From: Oscillospiraceae bacterium
Lineage (GTDB): Bacteria; Bacillota; Clostridia; Oscillospirales; CAG-272
Direction of reading: 5' to 3'
NCBI GenBank assembly: GCA_015065455.1
Contig: SVQI01000008.1
Location: forward strand, 716 to 64,715
DNA length: 64,000 bases
Shown: in pieces, positions 3,455 to 56,270 of the stretch
Layout of the letters: every line of letters begins with the position of its first letter
Position numbering within the stretch: position 1 is the stretch's first letter
Made by a program: the position numbers and the translations under genes
The notes under the pieces: model-generated
Database searches by the model: none
Seen by the model: the letters and a program-made list of their open reading frames with translations, nothing else
Told to the model about the DNA's origin: nothing

Positions 3455-3530
3455 AAAAGTTTTGAGGGAGTCAAGAGGGCACTTTTTTAAAAGTGCTCCT
3501 TTGATGTGGGTTTGGGAGTGAAACTCCCGG
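3455..3530 (+). repeat. R1 repeat, full copy
   Basis: AAAAGTTTTGAGGGAGTCAAGAGGGCACTTTTTTAAAAGTGCTCC...GGGAGTGAAACTCCC. Nearly identical to the copies at 14108 and 44623. Confidence 0.8.
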
Positions 3531-4506: not shown

Positions 4507-4833
4507 TTGCGCAAAAACATGACTCGGGAAGAAAGAATTTTGTGGTATGAATTATTTAAAAAATTACCTATCACAGTAAAAAGACAATATAGAATAGAAA
4601 ATTATATTGTTGATTTTTATATTGCGGAAAAGAAATTGATCATAGAAGTTGATGGAAGACAGCACCTTATGTCTGATTATAAAAATTTAGATGCAGTAAG
4701 GGACAAAAAACTTTTAGAATGGGGAATAGAAGTTATTCGTATACCCAATAAAGATATAAACGAAAATTTTAATGGAATTTGTAATTATTTATTAAAAAGA
4801 TTAGGATTTGTATACTCAGATTTAAAAAGATAG
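4507..4833 (+). CDS. DUF559 / Vsr-like endonuclease domain protein, possibly lacking a proper start
   Basis: YIVDFYIAEKKLIIEVDGRQH core typical of DUF559. Paralogous to the ORF at 18741-19118. The conserved N-terminal ARKLR segment lies upstream of the first usable start codon. Confidence 0.65.
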   Translation: MRKNMTREERILWYELFKKLPITVKRQYRIENYIVDFYIAEKKLIIEVDGRQHLMSDYKNLDAVRDKKLLEWGIEVIRIPNKDINENFNGICNYLLKRLGFVYSDLKR

Positions 4834-4848
4834 TATATTTTGAGAATG

Positions 4849-5104
4849 ACGACCTCATCCGTCACACCGCTTTTTGCATCTGATAAAGACCTTATTTATC
4901 AGCGGTGTGCCACCTTCTCCCACCGGAGAAGGCTCAAAATTAGCGCGTTTTCTTTGTTGTTTATTATGTGTTAATATTAATATTAATTTGAAAAAATAAA
5001 GGCAAAAGACTTTACTCTGCGCCTTCTCCGGTGGGAGAAGGTGGCGTTCCGCCAATATGTTTAATTTATTATTGTTTATAATGCGGCGCGACGGATGAGG
5101 TCGT
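4849..5104. repeat. 256-bp nested palindrome made of two inverted R3 units, with no ORF
   Basis: Outer inverted repeat GACCTCATCCGTC (4851-4863) / GACGGATGAGGTC (5090-5102). Inner perfect 25-bp inverted repeat GCCACCTTCTCCCACCGGAGAAGGC (4909-4933) / GCCTTCTCCGGTGGGAGAAGGTGGC (5021-5045). Confidence 0.85.
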
Positions 5105-5151
5105 AAAAAATAAACGACATTCTTTTGATAAGGTTGTCGTTTTTTTATTAT

Positions 5152-11404: not shown

Positions 11405-11600
11405 TTTTTACGTTACTTTCTTGCGTGCCAAGAAAGTAACCAAAGAAGGCACAAGAGGAGGGGATTTCGATTTCCCCTCCTCTTGACTCCTACCCCTGAA
11501 ACGACCGAGGGCGTTCCTCCCTCGGTACCCCCCCTTTGTTCGCAGAAATGGTATTGCTTAATTATGTAGGGCGTATAACTTGACTTCCGCCCGTTTTTTT
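11405..11600 (+). repeat. R2 structured repeat, copy A (about 196 nt)
   Basis: TTACGTTACTTTCTTGCGTGCCAAGAAAGTAACCAAAGAAGGCACAAG is identical in all three copies. It is followed by a 13-bp purine/pyrimidine hairpin (11451-11484), a CCGAGGG...CCCTCGG hairpin and a terminal GGGCG...CGCCC hairpin plus T run. Confidence 0.85.
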
Positions 11601-14107: not shown

Positions 14108-14195
14108 AAAGTTTTTGCGGAGTCAAGAGGGGATTTTTTCAAAAAGCCCCTTTTGTCAAGGGTTCGGGAGCGAAGCTCCTGACATTCTGTGCTCC
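14108..14195 (+). repeat. R1 repeat, full copy
   Basis: AAAGTTTTTGCGGAGTCAAGAGGGGATTTTTTCAAAAAGCCCC...GGTTCGGGAGCGAAGCTCCTGACATTCTGTGCTCC. Confidence 0.8.
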
Positions 14196-14246
14196 TTTAA
14201 AAAACGCGAAAGCGTTTTTTTGTTTTAAGACGTATTATTTGTTTTA

Positions 14247-14530
14247 ATAATATTGTCTTTTCTTTTTTTACGTTACTTTCTTGCGTGCCAAGAAAGTAAC
14301 CAAAGAAGGCACAAGGGGGCGGAGGTTTCGATTCCTCCTCCCCCTCGACCCCCAACCACCAAACGACAAAGGGGGATTACCCCCTTTGCACCCCCATCGT
14401 TTGCGAAAGATGGAAGGTTAGGTTATACTTTTTGTTTTTTAATGAAAATGTTCCTCCCTCGGTACCCCCCTTTGTTTGCTGAGATAATATTATTTAAATT
14501 TGTAGGGCGTATATCCTGCTCCCGCCGTTT
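14247..14530 (+). repeat. R2 structured repeat, copy B (about 284 nt, chimeric or partly duplicated)
   Basis: Same 5' block as copies A and C. It contains a variant middle module (CAAAGGGGG-ATTA-CCCCCTTTG) followed by a 5'-truncated canonical module (GTTCCTCCCTCGGTACCCCCC...). Confidence 0.8.
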
Positions 14531-18579: not shown

Positions 18580-18693
18580 GCCTTCCTCTGACGAGGAAGG
18601 TGGCTTGACGTAAAGAAAAAGACGCGTTTTCTACCTATAAGTAAAGTTGGAAAGAAAACGCGTATTTTTTAGTCAAGACGGAAGGAGAGAGAA
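18580..18693 (+). repeat. R3 unit (P1 hairpin, P2 hairpin, purine-rich tail)
   Basis: P1 is GCCTTCCTC-TGAC-GAGGAAGGTGGC. P2 is ACGCGTTTTCT...AGAAAACGCGT plus a T run. The tail is GTCAAGACGGAAGGAGAGAGAA. Confidence 0.8.
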
Positions 18694-18740
18694 TGTGAAA
18701 GTTTACACGACAAAAAAATCTTGACTTTTTAAGGTAAAAA

Positions 18741-19118
18741 ATGAAACAGTATAACAAATCAAATGTAACGTTAGCGAAAAAACTGCGACGCGAACAAACA
18801 GAGTGGGAAAGAAAATTGTGGTATTGCTATTTGAGTAAATACCCAATAAAATTTCAAAGACAGAAACCTATAGGAGAATATATTGTCGATTTTTATTGTG
18901 CAAAAGCAAAACTTGTTATTGAGCTTGATGGATACTATCATACAACAGATAAACAGTATCAAAACGATAAAAAACGAACTGAAGAAATAAGAAAACAGCA
19001 CTTAACAATATTAAGATTTACAAACCAAGAGATAGAAACAAAGTTTAATGTAGTCTGTAAAAAGATAGATGCTTTTGTGAAAAGGAGTGTGGAGATTAAT
19101 GAAGTTGTGGAAAGTTGA
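18741..19118 (+). CDS. DUF559 / Vsr-like endonuclease domain protein
   Basis: 125 aa with LAKKLRREQTEWERKLWY and YIVDFYCAKAKLVIELDGYYH motifs. Confidence 0.75.
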   Translation: MKQYNKSNVTLAKKLRREQTEWERKLWYCYLSKYPIKFQRQKPIGEYIVDFYCAKAKLVIELDGYYHTTDKQYQNDKKRTEEIRKQHLTILRFTNQEIETKFNVVCKKIDAFVKRSVEINEVVES

Positions 19119-19121
19119 TTA

Positions 19122-19231
19122 TTCTCTCTCCTTCAGTCTTGGCTAAAAACTCGGTATTTTCTTTGATTAATTATCAAGGAAGAAAATACCGAGTTTTTTT
19201 ACGCCAATCCAGCTTCCTCGTCAGAGGAAGC
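19122..19231 (-). repeat. R3 unit, inverted copy
   Basis: TTCTCTCTCCTTCAGTCTTGGC matches the reverse complement of the left tail at 20/22 positions. P2 is CTCGGTATTTTCT...AGAAAATACCGAG. P1 is GCTTCCTC-GTCA-GAGGAAGC. Confidence 0.8.
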
Positions 19232-19294
19232 CGAGTGGGAGCTGAATTTTATTGTTTTACTTATAATTTTATTATAAACAATAAAGAGGACTTT

Positions 19295-19819
19295 TTAAAA
19301 AGTCCTCTTTATTATTTCATCATTTTTGAGTGATTTTTGTACGTCAATAATTCTTTGATTTGACGAGCCGCGGAACTTAAGGCTTATATCCTTCAGTTCC
19401 TCAATAAACTCACCGTCAACCAGCACATCGACCATAGAAAGCATTTCAAGTGTTGTATCAGTAAATGCTCTCGACTCTTTTTTGCCCGTCAATTCTTCAA
19501 ATAAATATCCGCTGTACACCCAAACGTTTTTTTCGGGAAGTTCCATTTTTACTCTTCGTAAGAGCTTTACGAGAGTTTTTTGATTTTCCGGTTCAAAAGG
19601 TTCACCGCCGAGTAACGATAACCCCTCGATGTATCCCGGACTTAAAGCTTCAATAAGCTCATCTTCGGTCTGCTCCGTGTATTCTGTTCCAAAGTTGAAG
19701 TTCCACGTTTCGGGATTAAAGCAACCCTTGCAGTGATGTGTGCATCCGGAAACGAACATACTCACGCGTACGCCCGTTCCGTTTGCAATATCAACTTTTT
19801 TTATTTCGCCGTAGTTCAT
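19295..19819 (-). CDS. nrdG: anaerobic ribonucleoside-triphosphate reductase activating protein
   Basis: 174 aa with a radical-SAM-type CTHHCKGC cluster. Immediately downstream of nrdD. Confidence 0.9.
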   Translation of the reverse strand: MNYGEIKKVDIANGTGVRVSMFVSGCTHHCKGCFNPETWNFNFGTEYTEQTEDELIEALSPGYIEGLSLLGGEPFEPENQKTLVKLLRRVKMELPEKNVWVYSGYLFEELTGKKESRAFTDTTLEMLSMVDVLVDGEFIEELKDISLKFRGSSNQRIIDVQKSLKNDEIIKRTF

Positions 19820-23947: not shown

Positions 23948-24082
23948 TACAAGGCTTGATGTGCGTTGAAGCGAGAGGTTGCTGTAGAAATACAGGTAAT
24001 TTTCGTGGAGTATGTCCGATATTTAACCGGGCGACAGCAAATTGCTAAACACTTACCCGTGCGTTTTTGCGCGGACGTTACC

Positions 24083-44622: not shown

Positions 44623-44711
44623 AAAAGTTTTGAGGGAGTCAAGAGGGCACTTTTTCAAAAAGCACCTTTGGTGTGGGTTCGGGAGCGAAGCTCCTGACGT
44701 TCTGTGCTTCC
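44623..44711 (+). repeat. R1 repeat, full copy
   Basis: AAAAGTTTTGAGGGAGTCAAGAGGGCACTTTTTCAAAAAGCACC...GGTTCGGGAGCGAAGCTCCTGACGTTCTGTGCTTCC. Confidence 0.8.
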
Positions 44712-44731
44712 AGAAATAATCTCTCTTTTTA

Positions 44732-44789
44732 CCTCCATCTGACGAGGGAGGTGGCATTTTCGTTAGAAAATGACGGAGGGAGAGAAAAG
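44732..44789 (+). repeat. R3 unit, solo compact copy
   Basis: P1 is CCTCCATC-TGAC-GAGGGAGGTGGC. P2 is CATTTTC-GTTA-GAAAATG. The tail is GACGGAGGGAGAGAAAAG. Confidence 0.7.
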
Positions 44790-44805
44790 CAAACGTTTTA
44801 AACAG

Positions 44806-45010
44806 ATAATATTGTCTTTTCTTTTTTTACGTTACTTTCTTGCGTGCCAAGAAAGTAACCAAAGAAGGCACAAAGGGGAGAGGGAGTTCCGATCCTCCCC
44901 TCCCCTTGACCCCTCCCTTTCAAACGGCCGAGGGCGTTCCTCCCTCGGTACCCTCCCTTGTTCACAGAAATGGTATTGCCTGTTTTGTAGGGGCATTATA
45001 CGCCCGTTAT
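44806..45010 (+). repeat. R2 structured repeat, copy C
   Basis: Same 5' block as copies A and B. The long hairpin is at 44871-44908 with a different stem sequence that still pairs. Confidence 0.85.
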
Positions 45011-45044: not shown

Positions 45045-45093
45045 AAGTTTTTGGGGAGTTTAAGAGGGGCTTTTTTCAAAAAGCCTCTCTTAT
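45045..45093 (+). repeat. R1 repeat, short copy
   Basis: GAAGTTTTTGGGGAGTTTAAGAGGGGCTTTTTTCAAAAAGCCTCTCTT. Confidence 0.65.
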
Positions 45094-56178: not shown

Positions 56179-56270
56179 GGAGAGATGGCTGAGCTGGTCT
56201 AAGGCGCACGACTGGAAATCGTGTGAACGCTAATACCGTTCCGAGGGTTCGAATCCCTCTCTCTCCGCCA
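56179..56270 (+). tRNA. tRNA-Ser (anticodon GGA), with CCA encoded
   Basis: Manual cloverleaf. Acceptor GGAGAGA/TCTCTCC. Anticodon stem CACGA/TCGTG with loop CTGGAAA. Long variable arm GAACG...CGTTC. T arm GAGGG-TTCGAAT-CCCTC. Confidence 0.9.

Follow-up and report, generated by a model that had tools for sequence, protein, structure and literature searches.

This study concerns a small nuclease-type gene of the DUF559 family that lies between polA and nrdG in a 64,000-nt stretch of DNA from an Oscillospiraceae bacterium (hereafter the window; contig SVQI01000008.1 of assembly GCA_015065455.1), together with the structured inverted repeats, or arms, that enclose it. Each arm is one copy of a repeat unit made of a hairpin (P1), a second hairpin (P2), and a purine-rich tail. 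Units of this kind fall into two classes, have a triplex-type layout, and accompany DUF559 genes closely and in many lineages; derivatives that lack the gene exist, and the occupancy of individual sites varies. Sequence comparison indicates that the units are conserved far beyond neutral sites. We give even odds to the reading that the gene and its arms are a resident copy, with long arms, of a nuclease-plus-repeat system of wide distribution, in which DUF559 and the triplex-type unit would be partners throughout.

DUF559 is among the commonest uncharacterised nuclease domains in bacteria. Triplex repeats of the BoxC/PIT type were described in Escherichia coli in the 1990s, and to our knowledge later work gave them neither an enzyme nor a function. 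Should the partnership hold, these two old unknowns would explain each other. The physical link between DUF559 and the repeat is conserved in Clostridia, Bifidobacterium, E. coli, Neisseria, and cyanobacteria, and E. coli K-12 makes both questions, that of DUF559 and that of its own repeat of this type, TM_ECO, directly testable.

The DUF559 gene and its arms

The gene (18741..19118, plus strand) encodes 125 amino acids, is intact, and is the sole open reading frame (ORF) within the polA-nrdG spacer. Its product matches Pfam DUF559 (PF04480) over residues 10-112 with 104.4 bits against a cut-off of 20.6 (E 3.7e-30); the only other profile match is a weak one to MTES_1575. Residues D50, E61, D63, and H67, invariant in 21 homologues, are intact in the window protein. 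The nearest folds of its structure model (predicted local distance difference test score 89) are 3HRL and the catalytic domain of the homing endonuclease I-Bth0305I. Compared with solved structures, the model scores E 2.6e-6 for 3HRL and E 4.8e-5 for 3R3P (target-normalised TM-scores 0.81-0.82); the protein also matches 3HRL at E 3e-13, and the I-Bth0305I catalytic fold is matched with a Foldseek probability of 1.0 and a target-normalised TM-score of 0.81. Vsr itself is a weak structural match (E 0.2). As modelled, the protein is a small nuclease with a predicted PD-(D/E)xK fold of the Vsr/I-Bth0305I-like kind. With pN at 0.16-0.23 and pS, which is saturated, at 0.64-0.88, it is under purifying selection.

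The first-pass annotation of this DNA had described the ORF as bracketed by inverted structured arms, and every element of that description was recovered from the sequence. The left arm (18580..18712, plus strand) opens with the P1 hairpin, CCTTCCTC (18581-18588)-TGAC-GAGGAAGG (18593-18600), followed by TGGC; the right arm (19104..19231, minus strand) opens on its own strand with GCTTCCTC-TGAC-GAGGAAGC (plus-strand 19212-19231), followed by TGGA. The shared string CTTCCTC-TGAC-GAGGAAG occurs exactly twice, at 18582-18599 on the plus and 19213-19230 on the minus strand, where 0.01 occurrences are expected per window. The P2 hairpins have different stem sequences in the two arms and keep their pairing, as had been noted: 18616-18632 and 18653-18669 are 94% complementary, 19145-19163 and 19180-19198 are 100% complementary. 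Each P2 stem is preceded by an A-run and followed by a T-run, and the loops are 16-20 nt long. Beneath P2 lies a closing helix, TTGAC/GTCAA on the left (18605-18609 / 18672-18676) and TTGGC/GCCAA on the right (19203-19207 / 19139-19143), which is a compensatory change between the arms; a third variant, TCGGC/GCCGA, is found in a relative.

The tails complete the symmetry. On the left, GAC is followed by GGAAGGAG (18680-18687) and AGAGAA up to 18693; on the right, GACT is followed by GAAGGAG and AGAGAA (19122-19143 including the closing helix). The left tail (18672-18693) differs from the complement of 19122-19143 at 2 of 22 positions, a match expected 0 times by chance. The right tail begins at 19122 and the stop codon ends at 19118, the spacing that had been given. 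The inverted repeat in fact reaches some 18-19 nt further inward than previously annotated, to 18694-18712 and 19104-19121, and therefore the last 15 nt (5 codons) of the ORF lie inside the right arm. Both arms fold much better than shuffled sequence, with z-scores of -6.6, -7.7, and -9.5 (-6.6 for the left arm and -9.5 for the right arm). Compensatory changes, with both partners of the pair altered, affect 3 of 8 P1 pairs and 7 of 18 P2 pairs. The purines of the left tail are an exact mirror image of the P1 purine strand (GAGGAAGG / GGAAGGAG), and the right arm repeats this relation with GAGGAAG in P1 and GAAGGAG in the tail (pyrimidine strand CTTCCTC). At least 24 metagenome contigs from this species show the arrangement unchanged.

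Searches for elements of other kinds gave little. With Rfam 15 at the gathering score, nothing was found in the arms or in six related loci, and a search of the region at E <= 10 gave sub-threshold chance hits; the only Rfam matches in the whole window are an S10-Clostridia ribosomal-protein leader and a tRNA gene (23957-24037, 56179-56267). A scan for intrinsic terminators called none in the arm region, because the 16-20 nt loops of P2 exceed the limit of the scanner. No convincing sigma-70 promoter was found between P2 and the start codon. The string CTGACGAG resembles a hammerhead ribozyme core; it consists of the P1 loop and stem, and no stem II or GAAA arrangement follows. Integron attC and Xer/dif-type sites were likewise set aside, there being no matching core sites and no integrase nearby. 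An ATG-TGA start-stop pair stands directly 3' of the left tail (18691-18698), and the string GAGAGAATGTGAAA, which follows the left tail in the window, also precedes the real DUF559 start in another locus (L017, 2592-2605).

The unit family around DUF559 genes

The family was sampled at 80 metagenomic loci with DUF559 proteins 44-62% identical. An inverted-repeat score computed flank against flank misses short-armed cassettes (L017 scores at background despite clear arms), and a unit parser was used instead. P1-like hairpins reach 7.8 per kb in the 100 nt upstream of the gene and 5.7 per kb in the 100-nt bin that starts 60 nt before the ORF end, versus 0.32 per kb beyond 400 nt. Among the 65 loci with enough flank, such a hairpin is found upstream in 50, at or after the stop codon in 44, and on both sides in 29. 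Full units, counted over 75 non-identical loci, occur at 1.61 per kb within 250 nt of DUF559 and at 0.015 per kb elsewhere, an approximately 100-fold difference. Arrangements such as L-gene-R-L or L-gene-R-L-R, where L and R denote units placed like the left and right arms, are common. The lineage of DUF559 and the type of unit co-vary, and no other enzyme recurs beside the units among the loci examined.

The compact form of the cassette reads gCCTCCCTC-TGAY-GAGGGAGG-TGKC-(short variable hairpin)-GAC-GGAGGGAGAGA, with the start codon 0-14 nt later. Because of this spacing, the upstream tail (GGAGGGAGAGA) is the Shine-Dalgarno sequence in compact cassettes; in the window the tail stands 47 nt from the DUF559 start, compared with the much shorter distance in compact cassettes. 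At the other end the downstream unit reaches back over the last part of the ORF and thereby gives DUF559 proteins their recurrent "...SLPQS..." C-termini. For annotation the units have practical consequences: spurious ORFs in large number, DUF559 proteins with spurious C-terminal extensions, and broken contigs in gut metagenomes. Of the distinct short P2 segments, 59 of 65 form at least 5 pairs, versus 28% of shuffles, with 39 different stems; P2 is conserved as structure and not as sequence.

Upstream and downstream units are two side-specific classes. Class C is defined by CC...GG, TGGC, and GAC-GGAG..., class G by GC...GC, TGTC, and GACT-GAG.... Upstream, on the strand of the gene, 38 units are of class C and 6 of class G; downstream, on the opposite strand, 4 are of class C and 26 of class G. 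The left arm of the window is of class C and the right arm of class G. Where the arms fail to match, at P1 (GCC/GC) and at the tail (GACGG/GACTG), the mismatch is therefore a conserved class difference and not noise. Many compact cassettes carry a further conserved hairpin before P1 (GTGCG..CGCAC, then CAAAG; for example at 2416-2443 of L035/L095 and in the upstream flanks of L045, L047, and L054), so the left end of some cassettes extends beyond the unit.

The mirror rule and the triplex layout

The mirror relation between P1 and tail is a rule of the family. Exactly mirrored tails accompany 7 of 17 distinct non-symmetric purine strands, versus 0.52 expected, and none of 5000 shuffles of tails among types reaches 7. 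Examples of P1 purine strand and tail are GGGAGAGG and GGAGAGGG in L132 and L133, GAGGAGGG and GGGAGGAG in L089, and GAGGGGGG and GGGGGGAG in L080. An exact direct-repeat tail was seen once, in a spurious unit. The notion that the tail is a direct copy of the P1 purine strand was rejected, direct matches covering 5-7 of 8 positions where mirror matches are exact; partial pairing over 6-7 bp may occur.

The general layout is 5'-pyrimidine strand, loop, purine strand, TGKC, variable hairpin, GAC(T), and mirror-image purine tail. No Watson-Crick scheme gives a mirror relation; this order of strands corresponds to the standard design of an intrastrand purine-motif triple helix. In layout the unit family belongs to the intrastrand purine-motif triplex class BoxC/PIT/TM_ECO, the triplex itself being predicted. 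The three blocks of that class, pyrimidine, complementary purine, and mirrored purine on one strand, are found in both window arms. The search pattern published for that class has short loops of 1-6 nt between blocks, unlike the units described here, whose second connector, between TGKC and GAC(T), is a hairpin of 15 to ~80 nt.

The E. coli member of the class, TM_ECO, has the form CCCTCNCCC-N3-6-GGGNGAGGG-N3-GGGNGAGGG and is present in 23 copies in K-12; its inverted pairs always combine type A with type B, and it marks rearranged loci (PMC4666352). Oligonucleotides of it are reported to fold in vitro into a triplex that is stable (Holder et al. 2015, PMC4666352, where earlier studies by Hoyne, Maher and colleagues are cited). 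The authors of that report do not name a gene or enzyme that goes with the repeat, and they saw no connection to mobile elements (PMC4666352). TM_ECO and the DUF559 units share the order of pyrimidine, loop, purine, connector, and mirrored purine, are both intergenic, occur singly or as inverted pairs of two types (A and B there, C and G here), and are both tied to local rearrangement. They differ in the second loop, which is 3 nt in TM_ECO, in the stem (CCCTCNCCC there, CCTTCCTC in the window), and in the hosts, which are Clostridia here.

The same pairing in other bacteria

The DUF559 gene of E. coli K-12 is ycjD (b1289). The 3' end of its ORF runs into a degenerate inverted unit, and downstream of it lie a partial duplicate of the last ~35 nt of the gene and another degenerate unit (L142; K-12 1351239-1351760, minus strand). 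TM_ECO copy no. 9 (1351204-1351239) adjoins this gene, ~170 nt downstream of it and on its strand, which gives the gene-R-L arrangement seen in Clostridia. Beyond E. coli, an isolate of Bifidobacterium felsineum has a DUF559 gene flanked by CTCCCTC-TGAT units in ~90-nt inverted arms, and motifs of the form pyrimidine, purine, mirrored purine adjoin DUF559 genes in a Synechocystis plasmid, in Neisseria gonorrhoeae, and in a human-gut phage contig. No paper linking DUF559 or ycjD with these repeats was found in the literature.

In phylogroups A, B1, and C the sapF-fabI spacer holds ycjD, and in other groups eefRABCD stands there; some sequence types have a 12-nt insertion at the 3' end of ycjD (PMC12817139). 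The gene is single-copy in 3378 of 5426 complete E. coli genomes. Numbers of TM_ECO per strain can be set against its distribution; the counts are published figures, and the phylogroup and ycjD status of the individual strains are assumed. Strains K-12, BL21, HS, 55989, IAI1, W, and E24377A, which we take to belong to phylogroups A, B1, or C and to carry ycjD, have 19-30 copies. CFT073, UTI89, IHE3034, S88, APEC O1, and JJ1886, presumably of group B2 and without ycjD, have 1-2. The O157 strains have 11 and IAI39, 042, and UMN026 have 6-15, all assumed here to represent groups E, F, and D.

History of the polA-nrdG site and turnover of units

The polA-nrdG site is polymorphic among relatives. 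In the closest relative (L128-L131), whose NrdG is 90% identical and whose gene order is the same, DUF559 is missing from the interval between polA and nrdG, and the 169-nt spacer holds unrelated units in R...L order. Two further relatives, L132 and L133 (NrdG 81% and 79% identical), carry at this site a different DUF559 lineage, whose members are 48% identical to the window protein and 71% identical to each other; the metagenome-assembled genome (MAG) that holds L132 keeps a copy of the window's lineage, lineage A, elsewhere. Presence and absence of the gene at a conserved site among close relatives, as expected of a homing element, is thus observed. The empty site that had been proposed as a check was found in so far as the closest relative lacks the gene, but its spacer is not clean, since it carries other units.

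Lineage A itself lies beside polA in three species. In L004 the DUF559 protein is 73% identical to that of the window, is encoded next to polA, and is accompanied by a right arm only; in L005 it is 69% identical, lies just after polA, and has both arms downstream of the gene with ~60 nt between the tails. The identities of polA in the same comparisons are 79% and 77%. The three right arms are 85-92% identical, compared with 41% at fourfold sites of polA between the window and L004, which implies that the arms are strongly constrained or are kept uniform by exchange. The NCBI MAG contig of L004 stops at the last base of the right-arm P1 (4494), which fits an assembly break at a multi-copy repeat.

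Turnover is also seen outside this site. At an unrelated locus (L009) of MAG GCA_045652425.1, a DUF559 that is 63% identical is enclosed by the arms, and near-identical arms form gene-less doublets at L010, between the terminase and portal genes of a prophage, and at L011; a fourth, more diverged doublet lies at 744-1010 of L009. One genome thus holds both inverted flanking copies and dispersed doublets, as REPIN-RAYT systems do. The essential difference between L009 and L011 is the ORF with its short leader, which lies between inner arm segments that are conserved. Two unrelated flanks, those of L035 and L095 from one sample, enclose a 490-nt cassette with 98.6% identity (100% in the ORF), the contigs possibly being of different genomes; near-identical copies at different sites are what insertion sequences (IS) and miniature inverted-repeat transposable elements (MITEs) produce. 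Array copy number differs as well, in that of strains with 97.6%-identical ORFs, one has an extra R-L doublet. Among phages with terminases 80-83% identical, the terL-portal spacer is either 30 nt or filled with units; it measures 30 nt in one prophage-family member (L098 1869-1898) and 264-594 nt in others (L010 6738-7332; L099 2088-2351). Triplex-type units and other hairpin modules fill the longer spacers, which places phages among the carriers of these repeats.

The first-pass annotation had read the feature as a small selfish or homing-type cassette within terminal inverted repeats, and parts of this reading have to be revised. A large family of repeat-bounded DUF559 cassettes in unrelated contexts does exist, along with gene-less derivatives that have the same arms in one genome. 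The polymorphic site and the 100%-identical ORF in two flanks agree with a mobile cassette, whereas the window copy does not look recently mobile. The suggestion of a homing-type element keeps the likeness to the I-Bth0305I catalytic domain and the presence and absence at one site, any movement by DUF559 itself being hypothetical. Finally, the arms are not the plain inverted ends of a transposon: each represents a different class of a triplex-type unit that also occurs independently, in gene-less doublets and arrays. Of the scans with arm patterns, that of a genome collection returned one MAG only, that of a metagenome collection gave no match, and two scans of viral contigs gave none; since the Joint Genome Institute (JGI) contig behind L001 carries the pattern, the metagenome collection is incomplete for this lineage.

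Proposed mechanism and rival explanations

Beyond the partnership itself, we put forward more tentatively, and with rather less than even confidence, that DUF559/YcjD-type nucleases would be the cognate structure-specific enzymes of BoxC/PIT/TM_ECO repeats and their hairpin-interrupted relatives, in a pan-bacterial system similar to that of repetitive extragenic palindromic (REP) sequences and their tyrosine transposases (RAYTs), which would create, move, and rearrange repeats and neighbouring DNA. Within the partnership, to which we give even odds, DUF559 would recognise the folded unit, hairpins and triplex together, in single-stranded or supercoiled DNA and nick or cut there; recombinational repair between units could then copy, delete, or exchange units and gene among unit-bearing sites. 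Such a system might work as REP sequences do with RAYT, or as a homing endonuclease would with the repeat as its target. In compact cassettes the upstream tail doubles as the Shine-Dalgarno sequence of DUF559. The enlarged P2 hairpins of the window, with their A- and T-runs, probably also act as putative two-way terminators, and termination in both directions would insulate DUF559 from polA and nrdG. Should the link between DUF559 and the repeats hold, it would add a second REP-RAYT-like system, with another kind of enzyme, a case from nature where a DNA triple helix serves as a recognition element, and a way to explain rearrangement hot spots, the sapF-fabI region among them.

Several observations weigh against this reading. 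The flanking arrangement is not obligatory, as L004 without a left arm and L005 with both arms downstream demonstrate. DUF559 of lineage A has diverged roughly in step with polA, across a distance of genus level, so the window copy looks like an old, vertically inherited resident and not like an active mobile element. No clean empty site was found, the spacer of the gene-less relative holding other repeat units. Target-site duplications, sought at the outer edges of the window cassette as had been suggested, were not visible there or at the boundaries of L009-L011 and L035/L095; the relatives are too diverged for exact junctions to be placed. Units away from DUF559 are rare in the sampled flanks (4 in 265 kb), and their dispersal is modest. 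The trend of TM_ECO counts fits a dependence of the repeat on ycjD, but it is confounded by phylogeny, and the O157 strains, which we take to be group E strains without ycjD, still hold 11 copies. In vivo footprinting of TM_ECO showed no triplex (PMC4666352).

Each of the rival explanations accounts for part of the evidence. The arms could act in cis only, within the DUF559 transcript: a structured 5' leader would supply, and perhaps mask, the Shine-Dalgarno sequence, a 3' stabiliser or terminator would carry a pyrimidine tail able to pair with the leader, and gene-less units would be decayed cassettes. The short distance from tail to start codon in many loci, the overlap of the downstream unit with the stop codon, the ability of the left tail to pair with the complement of the right tail, the A- and T-runs of the window P2 hairpins, and the strong concentration of units at the gene are all in keeping with such a role. 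We nevertheless hold it to be unlikely. The conserved mirror repeat is not explained by Watson-Crick pairing of RNA, and RNA is reported to form no purine-motif triplexes (PMC4666352), an indication that the units act as DNA. Moreover, there are gene-less units at 18 loci of E. coli K-12, in a prophage, and between unrelated genes; units stand in either orientation and form arrays; and the window has its upstream unit 47 nt away from the start codon, while L004 and L005 have none. It is similarly improbable, in our judgement, that the repeats are independent of the gene, spread by another enzyme or by replication errors at non-B DNA, with DUF559 as a secondary guest that homes into doublets between the tails or survives in permissive spacers. 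The difference between L009 and L011, an ORF and leader between conserved inner arm segments, is what such homing would leave; the fold matches that of a homing endonuclease, the polA-nrdG spacer holds unrelated units even without the gene, and different DUF559 lineages occupy it. The ~100-fold concentration of units and their side-specific classes indicate, however, an integrated unit and not random lodging; unit type follows DUF559 lineage, and the loci examined offer no other candidate enzyme.

A role in host repair, with DUF559 as a Vsr-relative nuclease that processes triplex or hairpin lesions of the repeats and limits damage instead of spreading them, seems very unlikely to us. The Vsr-family fold and the purifying selection on DUF559 would suit it, as would the conservation of ycjD as a single-copy gene and a Caulobacter DUF559 protein that causes an SOS response and was proposed to be a repair nuclease (PMC12907096). 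It leaves unexplained why the ribosome-binding site and stop codon of the gene are built into units, and why cassettes with units recur in unrelated contexts and across phyla. In addition, there is no cytosine-5 methyltransferase gene, the companion in very-short-patch repair (Vsr with Dcm), within ~6 kb of the window gene, whose neighbours over that distance are polA, nrdG, nrdD, a NYN-domain gene, and a GNAT gene. To plain terminators of polA and of DUF559/nrdG, alike by chance, we attach next to no probability. P2 hairpins flanked by A- and T-runs at the ends of genes do have that appearance, but pattern matches of this kind are expected 0.00-0.01 times by chance, and the terminator scan called none in the region. 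The same unit recurs at many other loci and in other phyla, which contradicts the first-pass proviso that the arms might be private terminators with no other copies. Furthermore, nrdG has a hairpin of its own: a perfect 21-nt stem at 19276-19317 overlaps its stop codon, is conserved in relative L128, and is probably the nrdG terminator, separate from the right arm.

Relation to known mobile systems

The proposed nuclease-repeat partnership resembles REP/BIME/REPIN-RAYT systems in that inverted copies of a short structured repeat lie on either side of a nuclease-type gene that is usually single-copy and largely vertical in descent; the repeat also occurs in gene-less inverted doublets and in alternating arrays of two types. 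The enzymes differ. RAYT is an HUH Y1 transposase of the IS200/IS605 kind, and a profile search of the window ORF gave no match to such transposases; DUF559 is a PD-(D/E)xK, Vsr-like nuclease with no known strand-transfer activity. The repeats differ too, REPs being plain imperfect palindromes without mirror repeats, and copy number away from the gene appears lower for the DUF559 units. With Vsr-like (EDxHD) homing endonucleases such as I-Bth0305I (PMC2677866, PMC3239194), DUF559 shares the catalytic fold and the character of a small, selfish-looking gene that is present or absent at a fixed site. Those enzymes have an extra N-terminal DNA-binding region and reside in group I introns or, within conserved genes, between the halves of split inteins, whereas DUF559 is here a bare catalytic domain between structured repeats in intergenic DNA, and the window gene sits in no intron or intein context.

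The cassettes are like IS elements and MITEs in having an ORF between inverted ends, with the ribosome-binding site in the left end and the stop codon in the right, and shorter gene-less derivatives that share these ends. Unlike them, they encode no recognised transposase family, show no target-site duplication at the boundaries inspected, and end in units of two classes, with alternating arrays being common. Vsr and VsrA belong to the same superfamily and Pfam clan as DUF559, and the Caulobacter protein was proposed to be such a nuclease (PMC12907096); the lack of a nearby cytosine methyltransferase gene and the weak structural match to Vsr set the window protein apart.

Other units and repeats in the window

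A second DUF559-like ORF (4507..4833, plus strand) encodes 108 amino acids from a TTG start and is 40% identical to the first. An in-frame stop codon lies just upstream of the conserved N-terminal stretch, and this ORF may therefore be truncated. It is followed by an R-position unit of another stem type (4848..4933, minus strand), which in plus-strand order consists of the tail complement ACGACCTCATCCGTC, a hairpin, and P1 CCTTCTCC-CACC-GGAGAAGG (4913-4932). An L-oriented unit of the same stem type (5022..5105, plus strand) consists of P1 CCTTCTCC-GGTG-GGAGAAGG (5022-5041), TGGC, a hairpin, GAC, and the tail GGATGAGG, a mirror at 7 of 8 positions. The stretch 4507-5105 has accordingly the ORF-R-L arrangement that is common in the family.

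A solo short unit without a DUF559 gene nearby lies at 44729..44793 on the plus strand (match E 1.3e-5, folding z -4.1). It reads CCTCCATC-TGAC-GAGGGAGG TGGC ATTTTC-GTTA-GAAAAT GAC GGAGGGAGAGAAAAG, with one mismatch in P1; its tail is GGAGGGAGAG, and the surrounding spacer is full of other repeats. Apart from the units, the window has a dispersed intergenic repeat family of another kind, with copies 85-100% identical at 3455-3527, 11405-11577, 14109-14513, 44623-44979, and 45045-45085. Its modules include TTTTTACGTTACTTTCTTG/CAAGAAAGTAACCAAAGAA hairpins and GAGTCAAGAGGG..TTTTTCAAAAAGC..GGGTTCGGGAGCGAAGCTCC, and they give rise to spurious proline-rich ORFs.

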